Source: Escherichia coli
GTDB taxonomy: Bacteria > Pseudomonadota > Gammaproteobacteria > Enterobacterales > Enterobacteriaceae
Assembly: GCF_051903065.1 (NCBI RefSeq)
Contig: NZ_CP178438.1
Direction: 5' to 3' (one strand)
DNA length: 64,000 nt
Shown here one piece after another: positions 57,119 to 58,921 of the stretch; position 1 is the first letter of the stretch, and every line of letters starts with the position of its first letter. The translations under genes and the position numbers were made by a program. The notes below the pieces were generated by a model. That model had not been told where the DNA came from, made no database searches, and saw only the letters and a program-made list of their open reading frames with translations.

Positions 57119-57131
57119 TTTACGATCACGG

Positions 57132-57163
57132 TGCCGGATGCGGTGCGCCACACCGCATCCGGC
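57132..57163. repeat. REP-like palindrome / bidirectional terminator
   Basis: tgccggatgcggtgcgccacaccgcatccggca between convergent uvrD and the DUF62 gene. Confidence 0.7.
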
Positions 57164-57172
57164 ATCAGCACC

Positions 57173-58090
57173 TTACTTAGCGCACTTCTTCACATCAATA
57201 TTCCAGTTAGCACCAGACGCAACCTGATGTTTCTGCGCGAAATTATCCATATTCAGCGCCACGGAAACATTCAATAAGCTGTTCAGATACACCATCGGCT
57301 GACCTTCCGGCACATCGCCGAAGCTTGCGACATACGGCATTTTCCCTTCGTATTTTTGCTGGGAACCTTCGGAAATGGTTACACACAACGTGTCGTTGAG
57401 TTTGATTCCTGCCTGATTCAGCAACTCGTCGCTGATATTGCTCCAGACGTTGCCGTACTGAATATCGAGAATCGGGATATTGCCCTTCACTTCACCTTTT
57501 GTTGCTTTGGCTTTCTGATAAGAAAGTTCGACAACTTTTGCCGGAAGCTCTGGCCCCACCTGTTCGAACGTGATCGCTCCGGAAGCCAGGCGTGCACCGG
57601 TGTAGGCATACACGTCACGACCGTGGAAGGTATATGACTTTTCGGAACCTTTCAGGCGGTTGGTTTTTTCATCGATTTGCCGGACGCTCTCAATACCCAG
57701 CGATTCCGCCACCAAAGTGAGCGTACCGTTATCCGGTGAAACGAAGTATTGACCGTTTTTGGTTTTCAGCACTACCGATTTACGGTCTGTACCTACACCT
57801 GGATCGACCACGCTAACAAACACCGAACCTTGTGGCCAATAACTGGCGGTCTGATACAGGCGGTAAGCGCCTTCCCAGATGTTATACGGTGGAATTTCGT
57901 GTGTTAAATCAAAGATTTTAAGATTATGGTCAACACCGAATGCGACCCCTTTCATCGCCGAGACGGCACCATCTTTCAGGCTAAAATCAGTTTGTAAAAT
58001 CAAAGCGTTATCCGCATAAGCGGATGATGATCCCAGACACGTTAATAAAAATAACGTTGCGAGCGTTTTTTCATTTTTGTTTCCCTTCAT
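57173..58090 (-). CDS. exported DUF62 / SAM hydroxide adenosyltransferase-family protein
   Basis: 305-aa ORF; signal peptide MKGNKNEKTLATLFLLTCLGSSSAYA; family motifs LILQTDFSLKDGAVSAMKGV, VSVVDPGVGTDRKSVV, YFVSPDNGTL, ILDIQYGNVWSNI. Confidence 0.75.
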   Translation of the reverse strand: MKGNKNEKTLATLFLLTCLGSSSAYADNALILQTDFSLKDGAVSAMKGVAFGVDHNLKIFDLTHEIPPYNIWEGAYRLYQTASYWPQGSVFVSVVDPGVGTDRKSVVLKTKNGQYFVSPDNGTLTLVAESLGIESVRQIDEKTNRLKGSEKSYTFHGRDVYAYTGARLASGAITFEQVGPELPAKVVELSYQKAKATKGEVKGNIPILDIQYGNVWSNISDELLNQAGIKLNDTLCVTISEGSQQKYEGKMPYVASFGDVPEGQPMVYLNSLLNVSVALNMDNFAQKHQVASGANWNIDVKKCAK

Positions 58091-58156
58091 TTATCTGATG
58101 ATTTTCCAGCGGTGTAGCCAGCCCCAGTTTGTCTGGCCTCCTCGAGTGTACAATGC

Positions 58157-58921
58157 TTAACCTTTCCGCTCGACGGAAATCATGGTGACAAAAGGATAGC
58201 GTTGCCACGGGATTGCCCCGCCTTTCATATACATATGTGAAATCGTGCCATCAAGATTAAGCAGCTGCTCAACGTTCAGTTTCGCTTTGGCATAACAGGC
58301 AAAATCATAAAAATTTGTCGCCTGCTGGCTCAACAAAAACACGGCATTCCCATGTTTATTAATCCCAACACCGTTACGAATTTTACGTGAGGCGACGTTG
58401 GGATGAATACGCGGATTAATTACACTGTTTTCCATCAACATTGGCCCTGACTGCACCGCAAACTGAATCTCTTTACTGGTTTTGAAGGCATCCAGACGAA
58501 CGATGCCGACTTTATCTCCCGCGACATAAAACACGCCGCCAGGACTGATAAAGAAATTCCCTTCACCTGAAGCGAGATTTAACGCCACCTTCTGCTGACC
58601 GTTTTCGATGTACAAACCGAGCGGCGCATAGCTTTCATCATAGATGCCGCCGTTCATCGCCATCTGCACCTGACCGTGACTATTAATATCCGCCAGCAGA
58701 GCATGTAACGTTCCCCACGCTTCGCCATTGGCTTTTTGCCAGTACATTTTCACCCGCTCTGTTTGAGGATTAACGGTATACGCCTGTACGGTCAGCGTTG
58801 GATCTGAGAGTGCGCAATCATCAGCGGCAACAGCAAACAAGGGAAGTAAGGTGAGAGTGAGAAAAATCCGTTTGAGATTCAAGGTGATCATTCCTTTACC
58901 AATGAGTAGCCGATGCGCCAT
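58157..58921 (-). CDS. yigE: DUF2233-family secreted protein YigE
   Basis: 254-aa ORF with N-terminal hydrophobic signal region; gene identity from position next to corA and recalled family. Confidence 0.75.
   Translation of the reverse strand: MAHRLLIGKGMITLNLKRIFLTLTLLPLFAVAADDCALSDPTLTVQAYTVNPQTERVKMYWQKANGEAWGTLHALLADINSHGQVQMAMNGGIYDESYAPLGLYIENGQQKVALNLASGEGNFFISPGGVFYVAGDKVGIVRLDAFKTSKEIQFAVQSGPMLMENSVINPRIHPNVASRKIRNGVGINKHGNAVFLLSQQATNFYDFACYAKAKLNVEQLLNLDGTISHMYMKGGAIPWQRYPFVTMISVERKG

Follow-up and report, generated by a model that had tools for sequence, protein, structure and literature searches.

A single-copy accessory DUF62 protein of Escherichia coli carries a predicted export signal shared across a large branch of its family

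A DUF62 gene beside yigE

The window analysed here, a 64,000-nucleotide stretch of Escherichia coli DNA, contains a complete open reading frame of 305 amino acids plus stop, which encodes a DUF62 (SAM_HAT) protein of the exported type in a rare allele with an A6 tract (Table 1). The same frame is labelled 'SAM hydrolase/SAM-dependent halogenase family protein' by RefSeq/PGAP. A Pfam search matched SAM_HAT_N (PF01887, 5e-53) followed by SAM_HAT_C (PF20257, 2.7e-18), the architecture of DUF62 proteins, and confirmed the family membership that the first-pass annotation had recognised from motifs. All of those motifs are present (T34-D35-F36, A45-M46-K47-G48, V94-VDPGVG-T101, P119-DNGTL-124 and G213-NVWSNI-219), although the last, which had been placed at the C-terminus, instead opens the C-terminal domain.

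Table 1. Positions of the DUF62 gene, its sequence elements and its neighbours within the window
Feature	Position	Strand	Remark
DUF62 open reading frame	57173..58090	-	305 aa + stop; A6 allele
AAGGGA, Shine-Dalgarno-like	58082..58087	-	within codons 2-3 of the window allele
Canonical ATG	58072..58074	-	start in ~99.8% of E. coli alleles; out of frame here
Poly-A tract	58066..58071	-	A6 here (usually A7); where the 1-nt deletion occurred
Signal peptide, residues 1-26 (MKGNKNEKTLATLFLLTCLGSSSAYA)	58013..58090	-	predicted SPase I cleavage AYA/DN
SAM_HAT_N	57554..58000	-	residues 31-179; holds D35 of TDF and the triad codons
Triad codons	D96 57803-57805; R103 57782-57784; H156 57623-57625	-	
SAM_HAT_C	57203..57484	-	residues 203-296, GNVWSNI included
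Cys236 codon	57383..57385	-	one of two Cys in the mature protein
Cys303 codon	57182..57184	-	C-terminal KKC tail; candidate partner of Cys236
yigE	58157..58921	-	upstream same-strand neighbour; NAGPA/DUF2233, signal-like N-terminus
REP-like inverted repeat	57132..57163	.	between the convergent uvrD and DUF62 genes

The spacer that separates the gene from yigE is 66 bp long. No promoter- or terminator-like sites were found in it, with overall scan counts no higher than in shuffled sequence, and the two genes may be co-transcribed. The first-pass annotation had drawn attention to yigE as a neighbouring secreted DUF2233 protein; the adjacent signal-bearing protein is indeed there (NAGPA, formerly DUF2233, 8.6e-18), but the link is confined to Escherichia, and yigE was set aside as a conserved partner. 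On the other side, the inverted repeat is a weak naRNA4/REP-type match that likely marks a bidirectional transcript end. In K-12, which lacks the DUF62 gene, REPs occupy its place. The gene is accessory, being carried by 44% of complete E. coli genomes, with O157:H7 and Shigella among the carriers, and single-copy where present; the earlier label of 'paralog' is therefore not apt for what is one member of a large exported clade.

The window allele is itself unusual, occurring in 5 of 2292 genomes. The usual protein has 300 amino acids and starts MKKTLATL from an ATG preceded, 7 nt upstream (counted from its final base to the A of the start codon), by AAGGGA. Loss of one nucleotide from the A7 tract puts this ATG out of frame, where it would yield MKKRSQRYFY and a stop, so that translation needs a weaker upstream ATG that lacks a good Shine-Dalgarno sequence and gives the N-region MKGNKNEK. 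With its usual start codon thrown out of frame, this particular allele probably makes little protein. The frameshift origin of the window's start codon had gone unnoticed in the first-pass annotation.

The N-terminal signal and its conservation

By inspection, the window N-terminus (MKGNKNEK-TLATLFLLTCLG-SSSAYA/DN) starts with a positively charged n-region, continues with a hydrophobic core free of charges and has small residues at -3/-1, and both inspection and a simple heuristic recover the tripartite Sec/SPase I pattern with an h-region no shorter than 10 residues. The canonical allele (MKK-TLATLFLLTCLG-SSSAYA) also passes the heuristic. Residues 1-29 of the AlphaFold2 (AF2) model have low pLDDT, are without secondary structure and lie outside the predicted fold.

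The same character recurs among relatives. The heuristic is passed by 79 of the 80 nearest homologs, by none of 27 cytoplasmic DUF62 representatives and by 8 of 51 window ORFs, an enrichment in the exported relatives far above chance for a crude measure that does not distinguish cleaved signals from membrane anchors and that one cytoplasmic Rossmann protein also passes. When lipoboxes are counted alongside signal-like N-termini, all 80 nearest species-level relatives qualify (58-97% identical; Pseudomonadota, Bacteroidota, Fusobacteriota, Synergistota, Bacillota and Thermotogota). Eleven orthologs from E. coli, Shigella, H. pylori and H. acinonychis keep an MK/RKT start, a hydrophobic core and [AV]-x-A/DN while individual residues drift, so the Sec signal with an A-x-A site proposed earlier is conserved in physicochemical character rather than in letters. 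In a neighbour-joining tree the query falls in a clade that is almost uniformly signal-bearing, and 67 of the ~128 N-terminally intact 50%-identity cluster representatives nearest to it carry a signal. By these sequence features the window protein belongs to a large exported branch, unlike every studied member of the family.

From this conservation we infer export of the protein and cleavage after AYA. The mature protein would then contain exactly two cysteines, 236 and 303, which occur together in 15 of 15 proteobacterial members and nowhere else in the comparison. A Cys236-Cys303 disulfide is a candidate explanation for the pairing, which fits a disulfide formed in the periplasm. Our literature search found no localisation or activity data for the window protein or members of its clade and nothing relevant on exported, periplasmic or secreted DUF62 proteins; an apparent mention of 'DUF62' in a P. 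gingivalis review proved to be DUF6249.

Fold, catalytic residues and family comparisons

The AF2 model (mean pLDDT 93.1) can be overlaid on experimentally solved structures of DUF62 proteins, SalL and fluorinase. Target-normalised TM-scores from Foldseek were 0.93 for T. maritima DUF62 (2zbu, E 3e-32), 0.92 for SalL and 0.89-0.90 for PH0463, with a range of 0.82-0.92 over SalL, FlA and PH0463, and sequence matches in the PDB to DUF62, SalL and FlA ran from 6e-44 to 1e-20. D96, R103 and H156 align with the strictly conserved Asp, Arg and His of DUF62 hydrolases (2zbu; Asp68/Arg75/His127 in PH0463); SalL has YPETGT and WYGKD at these positions. The three residues are at least 80-90% conserved in exported and cytoplasmic sets alike, and D35, N121, F155, R158, D159, N218 and N280 are also conserved in both; the catalytic triad is intact. 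Since triad and family-wide core are kept, adenosyl transfer to water is the default chemistry, and the window protein looks to have retained it. The 'different substrate' suggested earlier for an exported member finds no positive support in these residues.

While the core is shared, the exported clade is distinguished by ~40 specifically conserved residues (K39, K47, W72, R77, Q80, Y153, Y191, Q192, Q211, N214, W216 and L272 among them), which could reflect a different ligand. Assignment to an NCBIfam equivalog was rejected, as the protein scores under every cut-off: 131.5 against 350 and 114.4 against 470 for the (R)-SAM hydrolases (NF058624 and NF053629), and 84.2 bits against 400 for the fluorinase (TIGR04507). 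The scores below the (R)-SAM hydrolase cut-offs indicate a distinct subfamily rather than an equivalog of the characterised enzymes.

The nearest known counterparts, cytoplasmic DUF62 SAM hydrolases or SAM hydroxide adenosyltransferases (P. horikoshii PH0463, 1wu8/2wr8; T. maritima 2zbu; M. jannaschii MJ1651; Salinispora StDUF62; archaeal (R)-SAM hydrolases), share with the window protein both SAM_HAT domains, the fold (TM ~0.9), the triad and the core residues at 30-35% identity. They act in the cytoplasm without a signal peptide, whereas in the window protein the Sec signal is a conserved feature, to which it adds the KKC tail, the clade-specific Cys pair and many clade-specific residues. 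The halogenases SalL (chlorinase), ClA1/ClA2 and FlA (fluorinase) have the same fold at 22-30% identity, and SN2 adenosyl transfer from SAM would be common ground; they are, however, cytoplasmic natural-product enzymes that exclude water and lack the His-Arg-Asp triad, which is specific to DUF62 hydrolases (PMC10491745). A purely functional analogy can be drawn with E. coli UshA, CpdB and RNase I and with H. pylori NucT, periplasmic or surface hydrolases that turn external adenine compounds, themselves unusable or not transportable, into transportable nucleosides, but whose folds and chemistry are unrelated to DUF62 and with which no shared operon is conserved; the Aeromonas ortholog does adjoin an RNase T2 gene.

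Genomic context and possible roles in the cell envelope

To survey the neighbourhood of the gene, ORFs from 80 loci were clustered by all-vs-all BLAST, and 142 representatives within two positions of the gene were searched against Pfam. One association is conserved across lineages: a TonB-dependent receptor (Plug plus beta-barrel) adjoins the gene in 18 Bacteroidota loci from four orders, in three arrangements and with receptors that are mutually 34-80% identical. Beyond this receptor no family recurs across lineages in the census; there is no MetQ/MetNI, NupC/NupG or nucleotidase theme near the gene and no methionine or nucleoside transporter recurring beside it, and the neighbourhoods outside Bacteroidota are mutually unrelated. 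Three suggestive neighbours, RNase T2 in Aeromonas, deoB in Neisseriales and in Sebaldella a protein with the metallo-beta-lactamase fold, are each restricted to one lineage. Domain fusions were likewise rejected as clues to the substrate, being mutually inconsistent and possibly gene-call fusions (DUF62 with an extra SAM_HAT_C and Y_phosphatase3 in Fervidobacterium; others with Peptidase_M15 or alpha/beta-hydrolase domains). Rfam searches of 11 Bacteroidota receptor-DUF62 loci, 13 proteobacterial loci and the window region returned tRNAs and sub-threshold noise, and no SAM, methionine or purine riboswitch.

The H. pylori ortholog, HP0709 (UniProt O25413), has 300 amino acids and is 88% identical to the window protein (83% at the nucleotide level); its signal peptide is equivalent and it shares the Cys pair. 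It lies in the context rsmH-HP0708-HP0709-HP0710, without the yigE of the Escherichia locus, and appears to be core in H. pylori and H. acinonychis, in contrast to the accessory E. coli gene. The gene has a higher GC content than is typical of its host, and Escherichia and Helicobacter probably share the gene through horizontal transfer. H. pylori is a methionine auxotroph. It is also a purine auxotroph that depends on salvage (PMC13328217, PMC13280913), and its retention of so similar a protein fits a physiology of purine and methionine scavenging. HP0709 appears in an H. pylori outer-membrane-vesicle proteome (PMC8756444), which is weak evidence of export because ribosomal proteins are on the same list.

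Several explanations place the protein elsewhere or give it another chemistry. Were the hydrophobic N-terminus a start-codon artefact, the product would be a cytoplasmic SAM hydrolase begun further downstream, perhaps at the TTG codon of Leu30, which is in frame (M-ILQTDF), and it is true that cytoplasmic DUF62 proteins start 2-13 residues ahead of TDF and that the canonical ATG is frameshifted in the window. This TTG nevertheless lacks a Shine-Dalgarno sequence, which the canonical ATG possesses, and from the signal to the essential D35 the frame contains no ATG. An open frame with signal character in 80 of 80 relatives is not what neutral upstream sequence would leave, and the E. coli and Helicobacter signals have diverged over a mature part that is 88% identical, as signal peptides do. 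The conserved signals and lipoboxes speak against the start-codon artefact that the first-pass annotation had itself raised, and we regard it as very improbable. The protein could instead be exported and remain attached to the membrane, as a lipoprotein acylated at Cys18 (Cys13 of the canonical protein, LLT/C) or through an uncleaved signal anchor. The LLTC sequence is lipobox-like, many H. pylori alleles have LSAC or LSTC, and clear lipoboxes occur in 7 of the 80 relatives (Longitalea, Niastella and a Neisseriaceae genome, for example). However, Thr at -1 is atypical of the lipobox [LVI][ASTVI][GAS]C with its invariant Cys, the Cys is missing from the orthologs of H. acinonychis, H. pylori L009 (the species representative), Aeromonas, Thorsellia and Pasteurellaceae, and each of these retains the [AV]-x-A site just before the domain. 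We consider attachment improbable.

With respect to chemistry, an exported SAM-dependent chlorinase or fluorinase is suggested by the PGAP product name, by the UniProt-derived annotation of HP0709 as 'adenosyl-chloride synthase' (PMC6090961) and by SalL and ClA1 as close structural matches; 'conflicting annotations' of HP0709 have been remarked on in the literature. Since the window protein keeps the triad that halogenases lack, and stays far below the fluorinase cut-off, we give this reading almost no weight. More serious, though still unlikely in our estimate, is that the exported enzyme acts on something other than SAM, such as a 5'-substituted adenosine or adenosyl-onium compound of another kind, or an antibiotic or metabolite of nucleoside type imported through the TonB-dependent receptor, and that its resemblance to SAM hydrolases extends to fold and chemistry only. 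The low equivalog scores and the clade-specific residues point this way, TonB-dependent receptors as a rule handle substrates that are scarce or bulky, and (R,S)-SAM hydrolysis has been doubted as the role of all DUF62 enzymes (PMC12120602). On the other side stand the full conservation of the triad and other family-wide core residues, the use of SAM by all biochemically characterised members of the superfamily (PMC10491745), and neighbourhoods, fusions and RNA elements that indicate no alternative.

The explanation we favour, and think somewhat more probable than its negation, is a soluble periplasmic DUF62 hydrolase that is exported by Sec, processed by SPase I and engaged in scavenging external SAM. 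The mature hydrolase-branch enzyme would begin at about D27, and its Asp-Arg-His triad would most likely prime a water molecule to attack the C5' carbon of an adenosyl-sulfonium compound. We infer that the substrate is most probably external S-adenosylmethionine, including the aged (R,S)-epimer that is unusable as a cofactor, and that the role is nutritional: the products, adenosine and L-methionine, would be taken up by ordinary transporters, and the enzyme would serve nutrient scavenging in the envelope rather than cofactor repair in the cytoplasm. Counting against it are the low (R)-SAM hydrolase scores and the absence of methionine- or purine-related riboswitches and recurrent transporters near the gene; SAM (~400 Da), moreover, is small enough that porins could admit it with no need of a TonB-dependent receptor.

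A broader proposal, which we hold to be doubtful as a whole, is that exported DUF62 proteins constitute an unrecognised envelope pathway for harvesting extracellular SAM, (R,S)-SAM included. In Bacteroidota the TonB-dependent receptor would carry SAM over the outer membrane for the periplasmic enzyme to split. Such a pathway would occur widely among Bacteroidota of soils and Proteobacteria living with hosts. The ancestor of H. pylori and H. acinonychis would have acquired it by horizontal transfer from a donor resembling Escherichia, and it would there nourish a pathogen that is auxotrophic for purines and methionine.

Looking forward, these findings bear on a current dispute over DUF62 SAM hydrolases, in which a role in cytoplasmic (R,S)-SAM repair is set against the view that the real function is unknown (PMC12120602; bioRxiv 10.1101/2025.08.29.672840). 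About half of the family representatives nearest the window protein appear to be built for export, and together with the tie to a TonB-dependent receptor in Bacteroidota this suggests that cytoplasmic cofactor repair is not the whole story. They also offer a directly testable alternative, in which the cell envelope is where SAM, or an adenosyl compound akin to it, is scavenged. The question has medical relevance, because the gene is present in those ~44% of complete E. coli genomes, O157:H7 and Shigella among them, and because the near-identical HP0709 is conserved in H. pylori, where a GWAS linked one of its SNPs to gastric cancer (PMC6090961). The exported branch may allow bacteria to harvest adenosine and methionine from SAM outside the cell.

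Identity of the DUF62 ORF between uvrD and yigE

The gene order xerC-yigB-uvrD-[DUF62 gene]-yigE-corA-yigF-yigG-rarD of this E. coli chromosome contains an ORF of the DUF62 family whose coordinates match exactly those proposed in the first-pass annotation. RefSeq labels it 'SAM hydrolase/SAM-dependent halogenase family protein'. A Pfam search was positive (SAM_HAT_N, residues 31-179, 5e-53; SAM_HAT_C, 203-296, 2.7e-18), and a PDB sequence search matched the T. maritima DUF62 protein 2zbu at 6e-44, with further matches to the SalL and ClA1 chlorinases, PH0463, MJ1651 and fluorinases. An AlphaFold2 model (mean pLDDT 93.1; input alignment of 39 sequences) gave target-normalised TM-scores of 0.82-0.94 against these matched structures. 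Since every family motif quoted earlier was also found, the original observation is confirmed.

Coordinates of features in the window and in comparison loci retrieved from other genomes (L numbers)
Feature	Location	Strand	Remark
DUF62 ORF, 305 aa	57173..58090	-	convergent with uvrD; 66 bp downstream of same-strand yigE
yigE	58157-58921	-	NAGPA/DUF2233, signal-like N-terminus
Rescuing ATG	58088-58090	-	16 nt upstream of canonical ATG; without good Shine-Dalgarno
Canonical ATG	58072-58074	-	in window encodes MKKRSQRYFY-stop
Poly-A tract after canonical ATG	58066-58071	-	A6 in window, A7 usual
D54 codon	57929-57931		D49 of HP0709
uvrD-yigE region	57120-58160		K-12: L006:2647-2792
HP0709	L002:8001-8903		H. 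pylori ortholog
RNase T2-family gene	L010:6964-7620		Aeromonas sp. RU39B
deoB	L012:4625-5827; L014; L021		Neisseriales
Multi-domain relative	L074:5971-7890		Fervidobacterium MAG
TonB-dependent receptor loci	L024:3022-5871; L030, L034, L035, L042, L048, L049, L058, L061, L062, L067, L069, L077, L080-L082, L085, L086		Bacteroidota

Signal peptide and start codon

As had been proposed, the protein begins like a Sec substrate, its n-region being positive, its hydrophobic core uncharged (TLATLFLLTCLG) and its predicted cleavage site SSSAYA↓DN. M-K/R-K-T, a hydrophobic core and [AV]-x-A↓DNAL recur in the orthologs from E. coli, Shigella, H. pylori and H. acinonychis. Within the core the residues vary (TLATLFLLTCLGSSSAYA, TILALFLSTCIGLSSVHA, TILALFLVVHIGSSSVYA) while the mature part is 88% identical, the pattern usually left by the evolution of a cleaved signal. 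Scanning GTDB species, each represented by a single genome, yielded 80 relatives (58-97% identical) from Aeromonas, Thorsellia, Pasteurellaceae, Neisseriales, Burkholderiales, many Bacteroidota, Fusobacteriales, Synergistaceae, Tissierellia, Halanaerobiales and Fervidobacterium, and all 80 have a signal-like or lipobox N-terminus. A crude heuristic passed 79 of them versus none of 27 cytoplasmic DUF62 representatives, although its specificity is limited: of the 51 window ORFs it also passed 8, among them membrane proteins and a single false positive. A signal-like extension is present in 67 of the 150 closest cluster representatives (50% identity), and 53 others start within ~13 residues of the TDF motif. 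In a neighbour-joining tree, the window protein falls in an almost uniformly signal-bearing clade. Residues 1-29 of the model are unstructured and of low confidence, the fold starting at strand 30-34.

The usual protein has 300 amino acids and starts MKKTLATL, with AAGGGA before its ATG. Because the window has A6 instead of A7, the canonical ATG is out of frame and only the upstream ATG restores the long frame. This exact sequence occurs in 5 of the 2292 complete E. coli genomes carrying the segment; it looks like homopolymer slippage and probably lowers expression. Thus the positively charged N-region (MKGNKNEK) noted in the first-pass annotation is present but is a chance product of a rare frameshift allele, a detail that reading missed; the signal of the canonical allele is equally good.

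The mature protein of the proteobacterial subclade has exactly two cysteines, C236 and C303, which co-occur in 15/15 members and are missing from all other sequences examined. This pattern fits a candidate periplasmic disulfide, although it represents just one evolutionary event.

Distribution and gene neighbourhood

As an accessory gene, it occurs in 2413 of 5426 complete E. coli genomes. In the records inspected it was always a single chromosomal copy between uvrD and yigE; O157:H7, O145 and Shigella are among the carriers. In K-12 the gene is missing, and uvrD and yigE are separated by REP-type repeats only. GC content is ~47% for both the gene and yigE, against 58% for uvrD. Next in similarity are the relatives from Helicobacter pylori and H. 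acinonychis (88% amino-acid, 83% nucleotide identity). The order flgR-uvrA-OMP-rsmH-HP0708-[gene]-HP0710...rpoN identifies the H. pylori copy as HP0709. It has 44.5% GC (GC3 48.8%) in a 38.2% GC locus, and the Aeromonas, Thorsellia, Neisseriales and Pasteurellaceae orthologs have GC contents in line with those of their hosts. Base composition therefore points to fairly recent horizontal transfer from an Escherichia-like donor into Helicobacter, this direction being probable. HP0709, described as having 'conflicting annotations', carries at nt 145 (D49) a non-synonymous D/N SNP linked to gastric cancer risk by GWAS (PMC6090961); the residue is invariant in 11 aligned orthologs. The protein also appears in an outer membrane vesicle (OMV) proteome list that includes ribosomal proteins (PMC8756444).

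The proposed adjacency to yigE, which encodes a NAGPA/DUF2233 protein with a signal-like N-terminus, is present but confined to Escherichia. The 66 bp between the two genes contain no terminator- or promoter-like site, so co-transcription is possible. The annotated yigE start yields MAHRLLIGKGMITLNLKRIFLTLTLLPLFAVA↓ADD; starting at Met11 (MITLNLKR...) makes the signal look more canonical, and the annotation may be 10 codons too long.

When all flanking ORFs of 80 loci were clustered, only one neighbour family recurred across lineages: a TonB-dependent receptor of 884-976 aa with CarboxypepD_reg, Plug and beta-barrel domains. In 18 Bacteroidota loci, spanning Chitinophagales, Sphingobacteriales, Cytophagales and Flavobacteriales, it adjoins the exported DUF62 gene. 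Three arrangements occur (same-strand upstream, same-strand downstream, with gaps of 0-100 bp in most, and divergent), and the receptors share only 34-80% mutual identity. That the two genes stay adjacent despite such rearrangement and sequence divergence speaks for a functional tie to outer-membrane import and hence a periplasmic role. Among 142 neighbour representatives, a Pfam census revealed no other theme, and no Rfam riboswitch was found near the receptor loci or the proteobacterial loci.

Single-lineage neighbours are anecdotal: the Aeromonas sp. RU39B ortholog is followed immediately by a gene for a signal-bearing protein of the RNase T2 family, and phosphopentomutase (deoB) adjoins orthologs in three Neisseriales genomes, both compatible with nucleoside scavenging. 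The Fervidobacterium relative is a 639-aa signal-bearing protein with SAM_HAT_N, two SAM_HAT_C and a C-terminal Y_phosphatase3 domain, and Peptidase_M15 or alpha/beta-hydrolase domains occur in other long relatives; such proteins may be real fusions or products of wrong gene calls.

Proposed role and alternatives

We consider an exported hydrolase-type DUF62 enzyme highly probable. Sec would export it, with cleavage following AYA, as comparative evidence strongly suggests, and it would adopt the modelled DUF62 fold in the periplasm, possibly stabilised by a C236-C303 disulfide. There the observed Asp-Arg-His triad would hydrolyse an adenosyl-sulfonium compound at C5'. We infer that the substrate is SAM, of exogenous origin. 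Extracellular SAM is not renewed and epimerises to (R,S)-SAM, which characterised DUF62 hydrolases prefer (bioRxiv 10.1101/2025.08.29.672840; PMC10491745) and which is useless as a cofactor. Cleavage to adenosine and methionine would then be the sole way to gain value from it. H. pylori is a methionine auxotroph. It is also a purine auxotroph relying on salvage (PMC13328217; PMC13280913), so SAM scavenging would suit it. This specific role is nevertheless tentative; export and scavenging taken as one reading are modestly favoured.

The main rival, an exported enzyme acting on a different adenosyl substrate, is rather unlikely. In its favour, the exported clade has ~40 conserved residues of its own, and scores against the characterised (R)-SAM hydrolase equivalogs (131.5 vs a cut-off of 350; 114.4 vs 470) reject membership of these groups. 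Against it, an alignment of 77 exported relatives and 27 cytoplasmic representatives showed the triad, D35, N121, F155, R158, D159, N218 and N280 kept in both groups. The remaining alternatives are less likely still. Membrane-tethered variants, including a lipoprotein cleaved at LLT↓C, are improbable: a Thr is atypical at position -1, and several orthologs lack the Cys although the A-x-A site is always kept. A mis-called start, by which the signal would be an artefact, is very improbable, as the signal is kept across orthologs and no in-frame ATG separates it from the essential Asp35; codon 30 is an in-frame TTG but lacks a ribosome-binding site, making a cytoplasmic isoform unlikely. By these comparisons the signal peptide is genuine. 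A halogenase is the least probable reading. The triad has been described as particular to DUF62 hydrolases and missing from halogenases (PMC10491745). D96 (in VVDPGVG), R103 (TDRK) and H156 (FHGRD) align with the corresponding residues of 2zbu, unlike SalL (YPETGT and WYGKD), and the fluorinase equivalog score is 84 bits (cut-off 400); on its residues and scores the protein is a hydrolase-type member.

Since thousands of genomes already have the gene annotated at family level, and a signal peptide is easily seen once sought, this is no new kind of system. The protein shares domains, fold and triad with the hydrolase branch of the DUF62/SAM_HAT superfamily. We found no description of exported DUF62 enzymes in the literature, and present debate on the family's role considers cytoplasmic functions only (bioRxiv 10.1101/2025.08.29.672840; PMC12120602). 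Being built for export sets the window protein apart from every solved or characterised member and, if true, a receptor-linked SAM-scavenging pathway would raise the interest of the exported DUF62 branch.
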